A stretch of 62,781 nt of DNA, filler included, from Stramenopiles sp. TOSAG23-2 (Eukaryota), in NCBI GenBank assembly GCA_900128395.1. It is 13 parts of 13 records of this genome, joined end to end, with 100 filler letters (N's around TTAATTAATTAA, not from the genome) between each part and the next. Parts side by side here need not be neighbours in the genome. Positions count along the whole stretch, not along the records: positions 49,251 to 54,590 come from LT650688.1; 12 more parts are not named here. One strand, 5' to 3'. Below are positions 16,778 to 58,275 of the stretch, in pieces. Position 1 is the stretch's first letter. Every line of letters begins with the position of its first letter. A program made the translations under genes and the position numbers. Under the pieces are notes generated by a model. It saw nothing but the letters and a program-made list of their open reading frames with translations, had not been told where the DNA came from and did no database searches.

Positions 16778-16919
16778 CTATTCCTTAATACAACTATATA
16801 GGTAGTGAAAGTATACAAGATGGTCGTGCTATTCTACCATAATTTAGGGCAAAATTATGGTAGAATAGCACGACCATCTTGTATACTTTCACTTCCTATA
16901 TAGTCGTATAAGGGCATAG
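16778..16919. repeat. Long inverted repeat (hairpin)
   Basis: Perfect 42-bp arms 16804-16845 and 16852-16893 with a 6-nt loop, extended about 25 bp with mismatches. Confidence 0.95.
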
Positions 16920-17966: not shown

Positions 17967-18174
17967 CAAATGAAGGTATTGCCGTAATTTGGTTTTTAAA
18001 AATAAGTCTGTTTATTATGTAATAAATTGAACAAGTTCTGGAAGTAGGTGTCAAATATTTTGTATTATATCAAATGAAGGTATTGCCGTAATTTGGTTTT
18101 TAAAAATAAGTCTGTTTATTATGTAATAAATTGAACAAGTTCTGGAAGTAGGTGTCAAATATTTTGTATTATAT
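17967..18174. repeat. Exact 104-bp tandem duplication (probable assembly artefact)
   Basis: CAAATGAAGGTATTGCCG... starts at 17967 and 18071. Confidence 0.9.
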
Positions 18175-19724: not shown

Positions 19725-19846
19725 CAAAACATCTGTTGTCATGTGGAGGATTTAAAGATGGAAATTTCAGAAAAAAAATTAGAGAAAAAATTTTAAATGA
19801 TGAAAGGAAAAAATTATCTGCAAACAAATCTAAAAATACTAGTAGT

Positions 19847-19887
<41 letters not shown>

Positions 19888-19976
19888 TAGAATTAGTAGA
19901 ATGAAACAAACAAAATTACCACAAATAAAATTAATGTCACCAGATATCTGCAAACAAATCTAAAAATACTAGTAGT

Positions 19977-20017
<41 letters not shown>

Positions 20018-21855
20018 TAGAATTAGTAGAATGAAACAAACAAAATTACCACAAATAAAATTAATGTCACCAGAGAAAAGATTACAAAAAATGTTTAGTG
20101 TATTTCGTGTGAAATTATATAACTTTTCACCATTATCTACTTTGTTAAACACCTTCAACAAATCAGAGTATTTATCCCATAATAAAGATATGGAAGCGAT
20201 TTATCCAAAGACGAATTATGACTTGTGGAAGTATGCAGATATGGTGGGAACGGAAGCCATTGAAAAGGTGAAAGTTGCAATTAATTTGAGTGATGATGAA
20301 ATTATGTTTGGATTTGACACAGCAACAGTTCTAAACGATACAGTTCTGTTTATTTCCATTGTGAAAGGCAAAGCTGCATTATTTGAAGATCTAATAGTAG
20401 TAAATACAATTATGTTTGGATTTGACACAGCAACAGTTCTAAACGATACAGTTCTGTTTATTTCCATTGTGAAAGGCAAAGCTGCATTATTTGAAGATCT
20501 AATAGTAGTAAATACAACAGACACTGCAACAATTACAAACGAAATTTTAAATATAGCAAATCAAGTGCAAGATGAATATGGAACAATACGGTTTGTAACT
20601 GGAGACAATAAAGAAAACAAAACACTTGAAACTATTTGCAAATCTTTAGAAGAAAAGGATGGCATAGTACGATTAAGCCTAAGCGATCCCACACATACAA
20701 CAGATTTATCAGTAAAAGACCTACCTAAATCATTTAGTGTAATACAAAGAATTATTGATGGTTCAAAAAAATTAACAGTATTTTTGAAATTGAAACATGT
20801 TCGTGCATTGATTGCGGAAATGAAAACGTTAGGAACAATATTAGTTATACCACCTACACCAACAGGATTTTCAGAAACACGATTTTATGATGCATACACT
20901 GGTCTTCAATCTATCGCACCCTATGATCATGTTATAGCAAAAATGTATGCACATGAAGGAGAACATGCAGATGGGTTTAAAAATAAGATAAGGAGAGGAG
21001 GACGAAATGATGTTCGTGACGTCGCAACTCTGGAATTTTTCGAAGCAATGAACCATTTAACAAAATTATTAGAACCATCGAAAATTGCGTGTAGATTATT
21101 GTCTACATTAAAATTCAATGTTTCAATTTATGCAATGGTTGTATTGATAAAGCACAAAGAACAAAACGCAATAATAACAGAAACATCATTTTTAAATGCA
21201 TTTAAAAATTTCGAATTCAAGGAAGATGAAGCAACATCTAAATTTAAAAACGATTTAATGAAATGTTTGAAGATTCGTTACAACTTAGATGGTTTAAAAC
21301 CAAAGAAAGATGATCAATTTAATAAATCAAATATTGGTAAAGTTGGATTTTTGAAAAAATGGTATATATATGCAACATTATTAAATCCAATGTATTATTA
21401 CATCGATAATATTAAAAATACATTATTAGATTTATACCCTCGACATGAATGCATTAACTGGTACATGGCATATTCTGGGCTTCATAGCAACAATGGTGTT
21501 GATGACGATGATAACGACAGCGATTACAAAAAACTCGAACTAGAATTGAAATCCTTCTTTGCTAAATCCCCTCGACATGAATGCATTAACTGGTACATGG
21601 CATATTCTGGGCTTCATAGCAACAATGGTGTTGATGACGATGATAACGACAGCGATTACAAAAAACTCGAACTAGAATTGAAATCCTTCTTTGCTAAATC
21701 AGGTCGATTTAGACATGGATTTCAAGCTCTTCGTAATGAATTAAATGGTGGAGTTACCATCAAAACAGTGAAGGAATTCGAGGCACTTTTATACAAATGT
21801 GCAATAGATGATGAATCCGGGGATAAAATATGGTGGGCAATGCATGACAATACAT
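19679..21855 (+). mobile_element. hAT-superfamily (DUF659-like) transposase, disrupted and 3'-truncated
   Basis: RLAKHLLSC (BED-finger end), FGFDTAT (Asp1), FVTGDN (Asp2), DPTHTTDLSVKD (CxxH equivalent), ETRF, ATLLNP and IWW (start of dimerisation domain). Exact duplications of 130 bp (19815), 108 bp (20301) and 132 bp (21438). Confidence 0.8.
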
Positions 21856-45866: not shown

Positions 45867-46515
45867 TTTATTTATAATATTTTATAATCTCTATTTTATA
45901 TATTCACTGAAGAATAAAGTATGCCAATAAAATATGTCGAAACTTTCACAATTTATTTACAATTATTATTGACTTTATCTTGTCACTATTATATATCTTG
46001 TTCTAGATTCTAGATCGAAATAATACATTTTTTTATTTTTTTTTTTTTTGTTTTTATTATACGGATGTGCTAATTGTTGAGCACGTGAATTCTTCCACTA
46101 ACAATTTAATGCATTATTATAATGCATGATGATGTATATGTATTTACTGCTCTATTTCGGACAATTTGCGTTTTGAGATTAGGGTTTCAATATTTAATCC
46201 TATTATAATGCTAATTTGCGTAGTAAATTAGTACTTACATACTATATAGGGTTGTCTCAAATTTTTCGAAATAGAGCGGATTAAATAAAAATGGTTCATT
46301 TTATTTTTTTTATTATTCTTTCATATAAGAATTCCAATAATATATACATATATATTATTAGTAGAATTATTAGTTGCTATTATATAGTATGATTTACTGA
46401 TTTCACTGATACTATATGTATATAGATATACAATCAAAAACAAACCAACCATTTTAGAAATAGTAATAAATACACACAAGCACTCAGACGAGTACAGATA
46501 CTACAGAAAGGGAAA

Positions 46516-47733
46516 ATGTGGAGTGGACAAGCATCGACATATAATACCAAATATCGTGCACGAACATTAGCAGCTTATAATAATGAATCTGCAGAAAGAC
46601 ACTTATTTTTAGTAGGGACAACTGCATTAAGAGAAGAAAATGAAATACATGTCATTGAATATGTTGAAGAATCAGGCAATATTGTATGTCGGCAAATTTT
46701 TAACCATCCAAGTGAGATATGGGATTTAAAACCCTGCCCAGAAAGGTCCGATTTATTATTCACTGCTTTAAATACTGGATCAACTATGAAAGGTACTTTA
46801 TGGGAATTACCAAATGATTTAGGTGGTCCTGAAGGTGATGATTCTGGTAATAATAATAAAACTGCTGAACGTGTAAATATGAAATCAATCATAACATTAA
46901 ATGAAAACAGTTCTGATTCTATTGGCGCCGGTGTTTGGGATAGTAATAAAATACGTTTATTAACATGGCCTGGGACAAATGTTGTTGGGGATTTATTAGT
47001 TTGGGATATAGATAGTAATAATAGTGCAAACATATCGCATACGATACAAAATGATAATAATAATAATAATAATGAAAATACAACAATACCTTTAATATAT
47101 GCAGCAGCATGGGATCCACATCGTGCATCGACATTAGCAGTAGCAAAAGGAGATAATATTGTTGGTTATGATATACGAACACCTAGTTCAGAAACAACAT
47201 TTTCCATCCCAACTGCACATGGATTATGTACACGTGATTTAGATTATAATCCAAACAAACCATATTGTTTTTTAAGTGGTGGTGATGATGGTAAAATTAA
47301 ATTTTGGGATTATAGAAAAACAAATGCACCATTAAAAGTATTATCAGGTCATTCTCATTGGGTAACTAGAACGAAATACAATCCATTTCATGATCAATTA
47401 GTTGTTAGTGCAGGAACAGATAGTAGTGTGGCATTGTGGCGTGCAGCATCGATATCATCTGCACCATTGTTGGAATTAGATGATGATGAGGAGGAAGATG
47501 ATGATGAGGAAGATGAAATAACAAAGAAAGATGTGGAGCCCAATGATGGGGATATAGATAGTGCAAAGGATATTACAGATGCTATGATACGTAGATTTGA
47601 TGAGCATGAAGATAGTGTATATGGTTTAGCATGGAGCTTATGTGATGCATGGGTATTCTCTTCTTTATCTTATGATGGCCGAGTTGTTGTAAACCATGTA
47701 CCTAGTGCTGAGAAGTATAAAATTTTATTGTGA
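46516..47733 (+). CDS. EIPR1: EARP/GARP-interacting WD40 protein (TSSC1/EIPR1)
   Basis: FLVGT..LREENEIH, AWDPH, RDLDYNPNK, HSHWV..YNPFHDQL, HEDSVY..AWS, LSYDGRVV, EKYKILL. Confidence 0.93.
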   Translation: MWSGQASTYNTKYRARTLAAYNNESAERHLFLVGTTALREENEIHVIEYVEESGNIVCRQIFNHPSEIWDLKPCPERSDLLFTALNTGSTMKGTLWELPNDLGGPEGDDSGNNNKTAERVNMKSIITLNENSSDSIGAGVWDSNKIRLLTWPGTNVVGDLLVWDIDSNNSANISHTIQNDNNNNNNENTTIPLIYAAAWDPHRASTLAVAKGDNIVGYDIRTPSSETTFSIPTAHGLCTRDLDYNPNKPYCFLSGGDDGKIKFWDYRKTNAPLKVLSGHSHWVTRTKYNPFHDQLVVSAGTDSSVALWRAASISSAPLLELDDDEEEDDDEEDEITKKDVEPNDGDIDSAKDITDAMIRRFDEHEDSVYGLAWSLCDAWVFSSLSYDGRVVVNHVPSAEKYKILL

Positions 47734-48041: not shown

Positions 48042-48929
48042 TTATAAATCAAAGTCATCTTGCATATCAAGGGTAACTTTTGCACCAACTTTTTTTGATT
48101 CTTTTGACAATGGAACTTCATCTTTTTTAAATGCTGGTTTACCTAAATATGGACAACCTGAACAACGAAATGCATCACCTTTATAACAATTTCCACATGA
48201 GGATACAGATTGTGCTAATTCCTCGTCCGAGATAATTGGTTTTGGTGTACCGTTTAGTACAGCTTCTTCCATCTCCGCTCGACCACATGAACAATTTTTA
48301 CAAGCACGTTTCTTTGTGCTACAATCACTTTTAACAGTTGCATCCACTAATGCCACAGCATCTTTTAATAATTCATCATCATCTATTAAATCTTGAGATC
48401 CTATTTTATTTTCTACATCAAAATTTTCTGCTAATAATGTCCATGATGCAGCTTGTTGTTTCGTTTCATTTTTTGTTGCAATATTTAGTGATGCCGTTGC
48501 ATTCGTATCCCAACTAGGCTTTTTTGATTTTATGAACGATACATTTCCTGCATCGGTATCTACAAAACCTGCCATCAAAAGTCCAAATGAAAGTTCTTCC
48601 GTTGCTTCATTTTTACTAGAAGTTGGTACACCAACATAAAGTTCACCACCTTGATTTAATGCTTGAAATATATTTAATAAATCCATGTTTTCCTTATACG
48701 ATGTATATAATACATCGAATTTATCGCTACTATTGTCAACAACAGTAGATATAACTTTTCCACACATTTTCTCGGCTAACTTTTGAGCATATGATGCATC
48801 ATCTGCAACAGTGTCATCATATAAAAAACCAATATTATCATTATTATTATTATTACTTTTCGTCTCATCCATATTTTTTACTACATCTTCCACAAAATTC
48901 CATCGCGAATTGTTGATAATCGTTGCCAT
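48042..48929 (-). CDS. CIAPIN1: Anamorsin/Dre2 Fe-S assembly protein (ATG at 48929 or 48872)
   Basis: [18 protein letters not shown] and [25 protein letters not shown]. Confidence 0.95.
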
Positions 48930-49250
48930 TCTTCCTTTTATACGTATATATCTGTTATTCAATCTTCTTTTTTATAAACGAATGTTGTTTTCGTGATGAT
49001 GTTTATTATAACTATTACTGTATATTACTATATATCAGTATGTGTATTCAATATATATACATGTATATTTTTTAGTTTTGGCCTGTGATTTGCATTTTTT
49101 TATTATGACACTATACCAGGTAGCTATCTAATATAGGAGTATTATATATGNNNNNNNNNNNNNNNNNNNNNNNNNNNNNNNNNNNNNNNNNNNNTTAATT
49201 AATTAANNNNNNNNNNNNNNNNNNNNNNNNNNNNNNNNNNNNNNNNNNNN

Positions 49251-49578
49251 TATTACTATTATAAACATTTGAATATATTACTTTTAATGGGTGCGACGTT
49301 TTTCTATCAAGACCTGCCCAACCTGTACCACCCGTAGTAGTTTTGTATGCTTTTAGATCTCCACAATACTTTAGAATAGTATCAATTGTCATGTTTCTAT
49401 ACAAATGGTGAATGTCAGTTATGATTACCGGAATATCTTTCAATGCATACTTCGTGTAGAATTCTAGTAAAGATAAGCCCGACACCCTTTCAATGGAAAC
49501 AGTTTTGACTGCATTTACTTTATTAAATGATGATATAATCATGAAATAGCAAATGCATATGATTATTATTACTTTCAT
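49251..49578 (-). CDS. Second copy of the 5' end of the secreted JmjC gene, truncated by contig end
   Basis: Matches 51995-52322, and about 50 bp upstream also match. Confidence 0.8.
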
Positions 49579-50131
49579 GTTGTTATATATTATTATTTAT
49601 TCAATATTAATATACATATAGATGCTTTTTTTCCTGTTATCATATTATATAAAATGTTATCCTATTGATGGTTGATAATTTTTCATTTTATATACATATC
49701 TATATCTATATATATATGTACGCAAAAAAATTATCACAAAAGACATGTCTTGCTTTTTACTTTTTTATTTTCTTCTTCTTTCCTTCTTCCATCTTCCACC
49801 TTCCAGTGTGTCCAGTCGCCAGTCTTCTTCCTTTTTGCCTTTTTTAGTATTATAAAAATAGAGGACTTTAACTTTTGGTCTTTTGGTGCTTTCCTGGTGC
49901 CCTGGCTTTCCAGCTTTGCACTTTTTACCAGGTAGTAAAAGTTGATCGTTATTAATAATAAGAGCTATACTAATACAGTATTATAGGCTAGACTATAATA
50001 GAGGCTATCTGGCTTAGGCTATCTGTGGCTATCCAGGCTAGCTATCCAGGCCTCCTGAAAGATAGCGATAATATTTTAGACTTAAAGGCGACTTTAACTT
50101 ATAGACTATTAAATTTCATATTTAAGGTGTT

Positions 50132-52322
50132 TTAATTGTTATCTGTATCGTGAATGAGATCATCCCTATTGTAGTAAACTCTAGCTACATTTTCCTTCAA
50201 TGCTAACGCATTTAAAGGTTCGTCCACCTTATCCATATACAAATCTGTTATATCTTGTCTAAAATGTACGCCTTGCATCGCTGGTATAATTTCATCCCAA
50301 GCAATCAGGTTATCCATTATTATAGAAGTTTTTCTCAATATTTGACTAACACCTTTTTCCGAGTAAACGATAGCCCAACCTCCCCATGACCGACCCGGTT
50401 TCAGTAAATTTTCTGAATATTCCTTGTCCACGCCTAATTTATGTCTTGCTAAGTAAAGCATGTCCCAATCCTCAGGCAATTCATGCCATACATTTCGCAA
50501 CTTGAATAACATATCGTCGTTAAAATGGACGTCATCCTCTACTACAATATTAATATCAACTGGATCGTTTTGGATATTTGCTAATGATCCTAAATGACTC
50601 AATGTACACCCTAGCTCACCCTTTGTAATGTCTCTCGTGTAATACTTGCAACCTCTTGAAGCTCTATTTTCAAAAGGGCATTCGCCTTTCCACTTTTTGT
50701 AAGGTATAGCTGGGACATAATCCCAGACTTCTGTACCATTGATTGCTGGAAAGTGTATTGCATTGACGATAAAGTTCTCAGGGACCTTCAAGTTATCAAT
50801 GCGATCATACATTTGCATTAAACGGTTGGTTCTCATGCTAATAATATGAAAATTAACATGCCGCGACACTGTCAAATACCTTGTTCCAGACATGGCCGGT
50901 TTCCCGTCTACAATGTAAGATGAATAAAGAGATGAAAGTTCTTCAAGCCAGGCAATATCAACAAAATCATCAGTACCTTCATTACCGTCGCCTTCCATTA
51001 CTTCTGTAAGATGAATAAAGAGATGAAAGTTCTTCAAGCCAGGCAATATCAACAAAATCATCAGTACCTTCATTACCGTCGCCTTCCATTACTTCCATGA
51101 CTTCCATAACCTCTTCCTCTTCCTGAGTAACTGCATTTTCATCATCATCCAAAATATCATAATAATTACGTAATAAGTTAAGGTGTTCCACACCAATAAT
51201 ATCTGGATATTGCAAAAATTGTGTTTTATATTCCATCCATGACATATAATCATCTTGATTGAGTCTTATACGACGATCAAATGTATTTTTCAATAATGTA
51301 TTTTGCAATTGTACATAATACTCGGCAGTACTGCCTTTAATAACTTTTTCCATCGAATCCATCTCTGTAATCGAAACAATATTACCGGCCAATGCAATGG
51401 TATTACCAATATTTTTTACTTGATGCGGACAATTACCAGGGATGAATATAAATTCTCCTTGCTTCACTGTGTCATAATAATGAATGATGTTGGATTGTTG
51501 ACCTTCGTCATCTTGTTCTCCTTTGGAAAAAAATGTATAATCATATGGAAAATTAACAACTGGTGATAATACATGCCATTCTTTTGTCCCATCGATGACA
51601 TATTGCCAAAATGCACTACCTAATACATCAATATGTAGACCACCAAATGAATTGTTTTTGCCAATAAATAAACTAGGCCAAGCATCACGATAATGTAATG
51701 GGGGAATACCTGGGGGTACACGTTGTAAAAAATCTTGTGCAATGTATTTTGGTATTAAATAATTATCCCTCAACAACTCAGAACAATGCCGACCAAGTGA
51801 AAAATCAAAGACACCATAATTATTGTCTTCATCGTTATTATTATTACTATTATAAACATTTGAATATATTACTTTTAATGGGTGCGACGTTTTTCTATCA
51901 AGACCTGCCCAATAATTATCCCTCAACAACTCAGAACAATGCCGACCAAGTGAAAAATCAAAGACACCATAATTATTGTCTTCATCGTTATTATTATTAC
52001 TATTATAAACATTTGAATATATTACTTTTAATGGGTGCGACGTTTTTCTATCAAGACCTGCCCAACCTGTACCACCCGTAGTAGTTTTGTATGCTTTTAG
52101 ATCTCCACAATACTTTAGAATAGTATCAATTGTCATGTTTCTATACAAATGGTGAATGTCAGTTATGATTACCGGAATATCTTTCAATGCATACTTCGTG
52201 TAGAATTCTAGTAAAGATAAGCCCGACACCCTTTCAATGGAAACAGTTTTGACTGCATTTACTTTATTAAATGATGATATAATCATGAAATAGCAAATGC
52301 ATATGATTATTATTACTTTCAT
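50132..52322 (-). CDS. Secreted JmjC 2OG/Fe(II) oxygenase fused to a COLGALT-like GT25 glycosyltransferase; 648 aa after removing 91-bp and 153-bp exact duplications
   Basis: Signal peptide; JmjC PVIITD, GGLHID..FWQYVIDGTKEW, GEFIFIPGNCPHQVKN; GT25 AING, TKGELGCTLSH, VEDD, DWDMLYLAR, WDEIIPAM. Duplicated units 50914-51004/51005-51095 and 51758-51910/51911-52063. Confidence 0.78.
50890..50909 (-). repeat. 20-bp inverted repeat, left copy
   Basis: Reverse complement AGACGGGAAACCGGCCATGT is identical to 53213-53232. Confidence 0.95.
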
Positions 52323-52961
52323 GTTGTTATATATTATTATTTATTCAATATTAATATACATATAGATGCTTTTTTTTTTCCATTTAGACTGCAAGGTGGT
52401 GGGTATTGTGTTGTTTATTGTAGAATAATAATGTAGTAATATATATACGTCCCCATAAAAACATCACAAACTACACGTCGCGTTTTATTTTTTTCTTTCT
52501 TTCTTCGCCAGTCCTTCTTCTTTTCCTTTTTCCTTTATATTTTATTTATTAACTTGTAACTTACTACTCCAGTACTGGCTTAGTGCTTTTAGTCCTGAAC
52601 TTAAACTCCTCTCTGGCTACTCAGGGAACCCCAGGAGGAACCCCACTATTATATGCCAGTATGCTGCTACTCATATACATTATGGCATAGCTCCTCAATC
52701 AAGAGTGAAGTGCACGAAATAGACGAGGGCACCGTGTAATTATGGCAGCTCATAAGTCTAATTCTACATACAGGTACAGTAATACTGGTAACAGATTAAG
52801 ATAGTACCAGTCGTCTGCTGTTGTAAATGGTGCTTACAGCGACATAAAAATATAAATACTGTAGATCAAAATTAAAAAAGCCACATAAGTCTCCTGTCTC
52901 TATATGCATAGTAGTTTTTCTGCATTTGCAGAATTATACGTTGGGGTGATTCTGTGCATAA

Positions 52962-53270
52962 GAGAAAGCAAACCTTCCCAACGTCCACATCATTACGGCG
53001 CCCCATACCCCTGCATTGGACTTGGCGATTTTGGCGAGTTGTGACGCTGTCATTATGACTATTGGTACCTCTGGATGGTGGGGTGGATGGTTGTCTGGCG
53101 GCGAGGTCGTGTACAAAAAAGACGCGTTTTTGATGGACCATGAGTTAAACAAAGGCAAGCCTGGCAAGGTGGTGGTGGCGGACCACTATCCAGAGGAGTG
53201 GGTGGGTCTGGGAGACGGGAAACCGGCCATGTTGGCGTATTTTTTTACGAATTATTTTATTTTAAAATAA
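52962..53270 (+). pseudogene. C-terminal fragment of a GT11 (alpha-1,2-fucosyltransferase-like) gene, GC-rich
   Basis: DLAILASCDAVIMTIGTSGWWGGWL..VVY...DHYPEEWV; in-frame stop at 52959 upstream. Confidence 0.75.
53213..53232 (+). repeat. 20-bp inverted repeat, right copy
   Basis: AGACGGGAAACCGGCCATGT; lies at the edge of the GC-rich tract. Confidence 0.95.
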
Positions 53271-53606
53271 ATATTTTTTTTATTATTTTTTTATTTTTTT
53301 TACACAAAAATTTTTTTATTCACTCTTATTTTTTTATTATCATTATGTATCATATTTTTCATTTTTAAATTTTAATTTTATCATATGTATCATATCAGAT
53401 CTTTTATATATCATTGAATCTCATATTAATAATATATATATCTGCATAAGAAATACCGTTCGTATTTTTCTATATATTTATGTTGACATATTTTCTATAT
53501 ATATATATATATGCATATCTACACACACACACACGCAAGAATATATCTCATATTTCTTATTTTCTTTTTCCTATCATATTTTGTCATTATAGCGGGGCAT
53601 GGTTCA

Positions 53607-54590
53607 TTAATTTGCATGTATACCCTGGAATCCGCGCAAACCTCTATCACCTGTTGCACCTTTTGCACCTCTTAAACCTGTTATACCGCGCGGGCCAGGG
53701 ACTGTTGATGCAGGACCAGGTATACCACGTAGACCAGATGGACCTTGGATACCTTGAATACCCTGAAGACCTTGGATACCACGTGTACCAGTTTTCCCAG
53801 CAACGCCGGATGGACCTGTTGTACCCGTATTACCTTTTGGACCTGCAGGGCCCATTTCACCACGTGGAGCTGCAAATTCTATCCATGTGTTGTTGCCTAC
53901 GTTCAAACGAGGCAGGATAGTTGCATTAAATGTTGTTTGCGCAATAAACAGGGATGATTCACTTGCTTTTTTTGTTGATGGTTGGATTACATAATCTCCA
54001 CGATTATATATTTGTCCCAATTTGAAATCTTTATAAATCAAGCCGGTTCCATCATTTCCTTTTTCCCCTCGTCCACCCATCGGGCCTGTTGGTCCATCAT
54101 TACCTTTGTCACCTTTCGATCCGGGTGCACCAGCAATACCTTGCGGTCCCTTCTCACCTTTCTCCCCACGAGGAGCATGATATTCAGCCCAATTGTCTAA
54201 ATCTTCGAAAGGCAGCTTATCTGCGACTATGCTATCCTTTTTCGCGATGAACATGGAATCTACTGTACTGGAATTGCTAGATCTTGAAAAGACATAGTTT
54301 CCACGTACATATGTATCGTGCAGTTTGAAAGTTACGAATTTTAATCCAACGCCATCATTACCTTTCTCACCCTTTTCACCTTGTACACCAGGATCACCTT
54401 TTGGCCCAACATGTCCATTAACACCATCTCTACCGTTTGCACCATTTGCACCATCCCTACCATCATGTCCATTAACACCATCTTTACCAGCTACACCTTG
54501 TTTACCTTCAGGTGCTTTGAATTCCACCCAATGATTTTTGTCCAACTCTTCTGATGGAGATTTTAAGGCTGTAAATGCTTTTGCAGCAAT
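53607..54590 (-). CDS. Collagen-like protein (Gly-X-Y tracts alternating with ~60-aa globular modules), 5'-truncated
   Basis: Three (GXY)n tracts; repeated module GL..F.L..Y.RG.YV..S.FIA..P..W.E..AP; frame open to contig edge. Confidence 0.92.
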   Translation of the reverse strand: MAAKAFTALKSPSEELDKNHWVEFKAPEGKQGVAGKDGVNGHDGRDGANGANGRDGVNGHVGPKGDPGVQGEKGEKGNDGVGLKFVTFKLHDTYVRGNYVFSRSSNSSTVDSMFIAKKDSIVADKLPFEDLDNWAEYHAPRGEKGEKGPQGIAGAPGSKGDKGNDGPTGPMGGRGEKGNDGTGLIYKDFKLGQIYNRGDYVIQPSTKKASESSLFIAQTTFNATILPRLNVGNNTWIEFAAPRGEMGPAGPKGNTGTTGPSGVAGKTGTRGIQGLQGIQGIQGPSGLRGIPGPASTVPGPRGITGLRGAKGATGDRGLRGFQGIHAN

Positions 54591-57877: not shown

Positions 57878-58069
57878 TTATTAAATTGTTTGAATATATA
57901 TATTACTGTAATATGATTGATAAAAATTATATCAACAGACTTTACTTTTACAGACTTTTACTTTTACAGACTTTTATTAAATTGTTTGAATATATATATT
58001 ACTGTAATATGATTGATAAAAATTATATCAACAGACTTTACTTTTACAGACTTTTACTTTTACAGACTT
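57878..58069. repeat. 96-bp tandem duplication (probable assembly artefact)
   Basis: TTATTAAATTGTTTGAATAT... at 57878 and 57974. Confidence 0.85.
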
Positions 58070-58275
58070 TACTTTTAATATGATTGTTTTGATGCATTAA
58101 CGACTTACATTTGTTGATCGATCGATTGATTTTTGGACAAATATTTGTTCTATAGTATTACGTGTTATTTTATTGGAAAAAGGATTTTCAAAAAAAAAAC
58201 AAAAAATTGTAAAGGGTTGAGCTGAGCTGAAAAGATATATAGGAATCGATATATATTAGTGCTATTTACCTGCTC

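Follow-up and report, generated by a model that had tools for sequence, protein, structure and literature searches.

A marine protist JmjC–GT25 fusion gene encodes a candidate secretory hydroxylase–glycosyltransferase of probable mosaic origin

Hydroxylation and glycosylation of collagen-type lysines are known from PLOD-type enzymes of animals and from mimivirus L230, in which a GLT25D1-like domain and a PLOD-type lysyl hydroxylase form one chain that acts sequentially on collagen-like lysines and adds glucose (PMC9614988). The protein described here is likewise a single chain that combines a 2OG/Fe hydroxylase with a GLT25D1-like glycosyltransferase. The arrangement differs from that of L230, where the glycosyltransferase comes first and the PLOD-type hydroxylase last, whereas our protein opens with a leader and a JMJD6-like JmjC domain and has a sugar and substrate that are only predicted. 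Its oxygenase is a JmjC domain and not of PLOD type: sequence searches gave no match to PLOD, and none stands among the PDB fold matches listed. The protein resembles L230 and PLOD3 in logic and belongs to neither, nor to COLGALT. The concept of coupling hydroxylase and glycosyltransferase is thus known from L230; what is new here is the JmjC domain as hydroxylase partner, together with the mosaic origin of the gene. A sequence-only reading of this DNA had cast the fusion as a convergent protist invention; as a new concept this finds no support, since L230 couples both activities and the GT25 half seems to have been imported recently.

COLGALT1 (GLT25D1) shares with our GT25 half its fold, the GELGC and EDD motifs and the catalytic D522/E523 (PMC12987934 and PMC12003778), but our protein has His for K470, Trp for Y494 and Gly for W495, lacks the N-terminal GT1 domain and is fused to a JmjC domain. 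JMJD6 (PDB 3LD8, 6GDY) is the best sequence and JmjC fold match, and the HxD...H ligands, the HxxxN motif and the lysine of JMJD6 GxKxW (PMC2938197) are kept in our protein; JMJD6 is nuclear, whereas the protein studied here is of secretory type, fused to a glycosyltransferase, distantly related and carries Gln for the strand-3 Asn. Human JMJD8 is, like ours, a JmjC protein of the secretory pathway, but lacks the acidic iron ligand and a second domain (PMC5684140). Extracellular FIH1-family JmjC–sulfotransferase fusions of Monosiga and stramenopiles (PMC2938197) also give a JmjC domain a group-transfer partner, but fall in a different JmjC clade, and the partner is a sulfotransferase rather than a glycosyltransferase. 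ESM Atlas clusters hold viral fusions of GT25 with Tet/JBP or 2OG-Fe(II) oxygenases (scores 0.77–0.83, leads only), which are alike in being 2OG oxygenase–GT25 chains and differ in the oxygenase family. Tet/JBP enzymes act on DNA bases. Our search of full-text literature, which covered main texts mostly outside the subscription journals, found no report of a JmjC+GT25 architecture, though other sources may list one; the related literature that it found consists of PLOD/L230 papers and general reviews.

The window is the 62,781-nt stretch of DNA that we analysed and consists of 13 contigs with N spacers from Stramenopiles sp. TOSAG23-2 (GCA_900128395.1). This host assembly is that of an AT-rich eukaryote (32.8 Mb in 9,146 contigs), and its sequence is also found in marine metagenomes and metatranscriptomes. 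The gene lies on contig G000:C3690, which occupies positions 49251–54590:

50132..52322, minus strand: JmjC–GT25 fusion gene, 648 aa without two echo units, intronless here
50914–51004/51005–51095, unstranded: 91-nt exact tandem doublet, frame-shifting, an assembly echo; single copy in P0028
51758–51910/51911–52063, unstranded: 153-nt exact tandem doublet, in frame, an assembly echo; single copy in P0001 and in the paralog C8001

As assembled, the coding sequence is split between a minus-strand ORF at 50982–52340 that matches Pfam JmjC (E 2.6e-7) and another at 50132–51088 that matches Pfam GT25 (E 2.1e-9), the two overlapping across the 91-nt doublet. Removal of one 91-nt unit gives a single open frame of 699 aa, and removal of a 153-nt unit as well leaves 648 aa, stop-free. 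Frame repair is weak evidence for a fusion, because 195 of the 1,538 deletions of 91 nt that we tried likewise open the frame, every one of the 195 lying between 50893 and 51091, and we rejected it as proof. The evidence comes from other assemblies. P0028, an 878-nt ENA contig and the one independent witness of the join, crosses it with one 91-nt unit and is identical to the window protein at 163 of 164 residues (341–504; the sole difference is V/I) before diverging beyond residue 504, and in the ENA record P0001 the 153-nt unit is present once. Since these records carry single units, both doublets are assembly echoes and the JmjC–GT25 fusion is real. The earlier proposal that removing a 91-bp echo unites two ORFs in one frame therefore stands, the doublet being exact and crossed as a single unit in P0028; the accompanying picture of a single echo holds for the 91-nt doublet and overlooked the 153-nt one in the JmjC part.

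Exact two-copy doublets of 91–153 nt number seven and occur in 3 of the 13 window contigs, the pattern expected from a systematic assembly fault. The five outside the gene (96–132 nt; 17967–18174, 19815–20074, 20300–20517, 21437–21700 and 57878–58070) probably share that fault, and in two of them the length is not divisible by three, so that a reading frame would be disrupted.

Sequencing runs give further evidence on the two halves. In the poly(A) metatranscriptome runs X2 and X4, which come from a single sample, and in the DNA run X3 from a different study, 0.75–0.78 of the sampled words are present. The JmjC side by itself could account for at most 0.615, a value exceeded by 4–5 standard errors, so that both halves are present in these runs, as co-presence and not linkage; runs with word shares near or under 0.62 are uninformative on the GT25 half. 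A search of longer proteins (583 candidates, 1 hit) gave no full-length match to the 648-aa protein. The outside GT25 records P0028 and P0076 break near residue 504, where one stops and the other begins, possibly at a polymorphic intron or insertion.

The N-terminal half of the protein contains the following features:

52254..52322, minus strand: hydrophobic N-terminus, probable signal peptide (residues ~1–23, cleavage site judged by eye)
51290..52253, minus strand: JMJD6-like JmjC domain of apparent host lineage, approximate limits (core GC3 0.22, host mean 0.22)
51627..51635, minus strand: H179-I-D181 iron ligands
51423..51425, minus strand: H249, third iron ligand, in the HxxxN motif

The hydrophobicity of the N-terminus (19-residue Kyte–Doolittle values up to 2.2) suggests a secretory-type ORF, in keeping with the signal peptide proposed before, and most relatives also begin with hydrophobic N-termini. 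Neither a KDEL-type end nor a second hydrophobic segment was seen in the 648-aa protein. The JmjC half matches PF02373 with 31.5 bits (cut-off 24), and an acidic linker separates it from the GT25 domain. The HxD...H triad is intact, as had been claimed: H179, D181 and H249, together with the 2OG-binding K196, are conserved without exception in the 23 family members that we aligned. JMJD6 is the nearest solved relative, at a distance (E 1e-11), and several marks of its family are kept, namely HQVKN (the HxxxN of strand 7), AGN (at the end of strand 8) and YR (before strand 1), as scored from an alignment to JMJD6 against Table 1 of PMC2938197. The conserved Asn in the middle of JMJD6 strand 3 is Gln in the same alignment. 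The JmjC tree places the window family in its own clade (100/99), separate from the JMJD6-like P0026 (on a long branch). With its own clade and the strand-3 Asn replaced, the window JmjC does not appear to be a JMJD6 ortholog.

The features of the C-terminal half are:

50135..50866, minus strand: GT25 domain with the COLGALT1 catalytic-domain fold, 86% identical to the P0027 GT25 (GC3 0.36)
50531..50539, minus strand: EDD metal-binding motif, E514–D516
50291..50296, minus strand: D595–E596, matching COLGALT1 catalytic base D522 and E523

This half matches PF01755 with 38 bits (cut-off 24), with the EDD and the catalytic Asp present. All four PDB sequence hits are to the COLGALT1 catalytic domain (E 9e-9), and only this C-terminal domain of COLGALT1 is matched; the two-domain GT1+GT2 architecture is absent. 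A predicted structure of P0027 (pLDDT 86.7) has COLGALT1 as its top fold match and JMJD6 as its second, and the first match of the same model among viral models is a Megavirus procollagen-lysine dioxygenase. By sequence alignment, EDD, C412, D522, E523 and GELGC of COLGALT1 all appear to be retained, and the three replacements given above are read from the same kind of alignment; COLGALT1 numbering was counted along it from the EDD and C412 anchors (PMC12003778, PMC12987934). PMC12987934 names D522 as the catalytic base, places K470 and W495 in the acceptor cleft and reports that W495A abolishes activity. EDD occurs in 35 and DE in 32 of 37 aligned GT25 domains (the best 24 of 46 BLAST-ranked representatives, from 150 listed of 938 hits, plus 13 others), many of them in stand-alone-sized proteins, and Trp fills the COLGALT1-495 column in one of the 37. 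Since EDD and DE are generic among the GT25s aligned, they mark an active GT25 of broad type and not a collagen galactosyltransferase. The COLGALT-like motifs noticed earlier are thus present but not diagnostic, with K470 and W495 of the acceptor cleft replaced by His and Gly, and the specificity for galactose and hydroxylysine that had been read from them is not supported. We consider galactose a quite unlikely sugar.

We are highly confident that the gene encodes, in one frame, a hydrophobic leader, a JMJD6-like JmjC domain of the Fe/2OG type and a GT25 domain of inverting, metal-dependent type, the catalytic residues of both domains being intact.

The earlier reading overlooked that the JmjC domain belongs to a broader family in which the C-terminal modules are exchangeable. 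PF01755 is found in 5 of 26 JmjC hits, which are natural single-ORF JmjC+GT25 proteins; with P0027 (532 aa, a natural two-domain relative) they make up a small marine family, with P0044, P0045 and P0068 as full-length members. P0027 and P0068 represent a second GT25 subtype in the family. The two subtypes are 26–33% identical and each is fused behind a family JmjC domain in separate lineages, which suggests selection for the pair. JmjC-only forms are common (the P0002 cluster has 23 members, and the paralog C8001 ends just before the join), so coupling of JmjC and GT25 is not obligatory. Other partners of the family JmjC are SET (P0010) and a leprecan TPR region (P0022), which we take to point to lysine and collagen substrates. 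C-terminal SET domains accompany the family JmjC in P0010, P0020 and P0060, on contigs of up to 502 kb. The wider group includes two more distant JmjC genes in the host assembly, on C1327 (L106) and C1663 (L107), one with a hydrophobic N-terminal segment and one ending a 1,474-aa frame.

The two halves of the window protein have different closest relatives. Compared with P0027, its JmjC domain is 44% and its GT25 domain 86% identical, whereas compared with P0044/45 the values are 62–63% and 26–27%; at the DNA level, the GT25 half and P0027 show 79% identity in a local alignment that is longer and takes in part of the flanks. The JmjC tree groups the window with the JmjC-only paralog C8001, P0002–4 and P0044/45 (98/98). 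The GT25 tree (FastTree, the best 24 of 46 representatives plus 13 rows) places it instead with P0027/68 (0.998), and P0044/45 with P0009 (1.0). The domain trees, as built from these alignments, disagree. The mean GC3 of 15 host ORFs is 0.22 ± 0.04; the JmjC core also has 0.22, and the GT25 half, with 0.36, is atypical. The JmjC half appears to be of host lineage and the GT25 half looks like a recent import.

Probably, the JmjC half comes from a host gene that also occurs in JmjC-only form, the GT25 half was captured recently from a virus-like JmjC–GT25 gene, and other lineages and the sibling contigs acquired other modules in the same 3' position; a viral origin of the GT25 half is likewise somewhat favoured. 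The P0027 contig (L007) has densely packed intronless genes with gaps of 4, 20 and 30 nt, a packing that is virus-like, and the viral donor is putative. P0027 adjoins a eukaryote-type RNR small subunit that groups with the host genome's own RNR (67%; tree of 65 rows), and we rejected the RNR tree as a demonstration that L007 is viral. No confirmed locus of the JmjC family was found in IMG/VR (queries P0027, P0008 and the 23-sequence alignment) or in GTDB (alignment query), and the surroundings of 80 viral RNR loci contained no JmjC or GT25 relative. Among the matches listed, P0077 and P0078 are the nearest outside relatives of the window GT25 subtype; their composition looks eukaryotic, and a eukaryotic donor is possible. 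The mosaic is a testable case of glycosylation modules traded between protists and probable viruses at one locus.

Around the gene, the contig carries fragments related to other modules:

50890..50909, minus strand: 20 nt where JmjC and GT25 join, shared exactly with the GT11 fragment end at 53213–53232 (plus strand)
52962..53270, plus strand: 3' fragment of GT11 (fucosyltransferase family), DNA 92% identical to the GT11 module of C6131/C1431
49251..49632, minus strand: exact second copy of the 5' end of the gene (51995–52376), cut by the contig end

The DNA upstream of the 5'-end copy is a diverged copy, which makes it probably a real tandem copy. Two sibling contigs, C6131 (L018) and C1431 (L019), begin with the same 55-nt JmjC tail, a 55-mer contained in the 91-nt doublet, and run in frame into GT11. 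GT11 is followed in C6131 by DUF6492 and in C1431 by a frameshifted HtrL/YibB. The last module in both, within the first 2.4 kb, is a broken GT25 that belongs to the other subtype, the C6131 copy being 76% identical to P0008, and in both the broken GT25 is followed by AAAATTGA, which we take to be a Mimiviridae early-promoter motif. GC3 of the modules in the two contigs ranges from 0.20 to 0.61. The one distant GT11 locus found (34% identical) was uninformative. An exact look-up of nine ORFs of the host assembly in the protein collection returned none, so the GT11, HtrL and DUF6492 joins are without outside support and serve as leads only. Degenerate, compositionally odd spacer DNA flanks the gene at 49813–49938, which resembles the end of contig C643 at 79%, and at 52560–52870. 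The second spacer includes a 41-nt piece (52699–52739) of a dispersed repeat of ~56 nt with 16 other genome matches, some at contig ends, which may be a mobile-element end or a library artefact.

A candidate substrate is encoded on the same contig:

53607..54590, minus strand: 3' portion of a gene with collagen-like repeats, with Lys at Y in 10 of 54 G-X-Y-G triplets

The collagen-like family is multi-copy in the genome (also on C8545, C949, C3911 and C6304) and consists of Gly-X-Y runs with short globular spacers between them. Collagen matches in viral contigs were set aside, as they look compositional (26–55% in the best segments). Among five PF03171 matches in the genome (top candidates, judged by eye), no PLOD-like gene was seen.

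The reading that we favour, with a probability of roughly 55%, is that this is a real marine-protist gene encoding a predicted two-step modifier of the secretory pathway. The protein would enter the secretory pathway, its JmjC domain would hydroxylate a side chain of secreted proteins with Fe/2OG and its GT25 domain would transfer a sugar from a nucleotide-sugar onto the new hydroxyl in an inverting, metal-dependent step, with D595 as the base by analogy to COLGALT1. Such coupling, in which the hydroxyl made by one domain would be glycosylated by the other, we put at slightly better than even odds. That the modified side chain is lysine in Lys-Gly collagen-like repeats is a tentative proposal, below even odds; a secretory JmjC acting on collagen-type lysine would extend JMJD6-like enzymes to a class of extracellular substrates. 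A still broader proposal is unlikely: an undescribed family of secreted, catalytically intact JMJD6-like hydroxylases in marine protists and their large viruses that makes hydroxylysine on surface collagen-like proteins and has a swappable 3' slot, filled repeatedly in this protist by viral glycosyltransferase captures. The modules of that slot would be the two GT25 subtypes, GT11, HtrL/YibB, DUF6492 and SET, and such captures would diversify protist surface glycans. Glycosylated hydroxylysine would then be reached by a third route, one based on JmjC. P0027 offers a small natural two-domain enzyme for direct assay.

The best-surviving alternative, itself rather unlikely, accepts the fusion and takes its chemistry to be uncoupled or not directed at lysine: the GT25 domain would extend glycans or lipids, the JmjC domain would hydroxylate another residue or molecule, and the fusion would mainly supply an imported glycosyltransferase with a promoter and a signal peptide. 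Bacterial and viral GT25s extend glycans or lipids, and GT11 acts on sugars, not amino acids. The replaced acceptor-cleft residues of COLGALT1 fit this alternative, as do the JmjC-only paralogs and the sibling contigs that put GT11, DUF6492 and HtrL/YibB on the same JmjC tail. It sits less well with the fusion of two GT25 subtypes behind the family JmjC in separate lineages, or with the best structural matches, which on modelled folds are hydroxylysine glycosyltransferases.

Improbable, in our view, is a recent, rare or non-functional chimera, in which filler or capture at an unstable locus fell in frame by chance and has no selected role. The frameshifted or stop-broken modules of the sibling copies, the 20-nt identity that ties the join to the GT11 fragment and the almost coincident breaks of P0028 and P0076 in GT25 would be expected of such a locus, but the GT25 domain is full length and open, keeps EDD, DE and the C-terminal HDT, retains 86% protein identity to P0027 (79% in DNA over the longer alignment with flanks) and is found, with the JmjC half, in runs from more than one study. 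A chimera formed during assembly or amplification from a JmjC-only host gene and co-sampled virus DNA is very improbable, for although the host assembly has systematic faults and the join is a graph branch point, P0028 shows the same join in another assembly and a different allele, and a random event is hardly likely to have brought two halves of one family architecture together in frame.

Elsewhere in the window, a neighbouring contig carries ordinary host genes, EIPR1 at 46426–47733 (plus strand) and anamorsin/Dre2 at 48042–48971 (minus strand), and a short exact inverted repeat with 26 matching 30-mers lies at 16804–16890.
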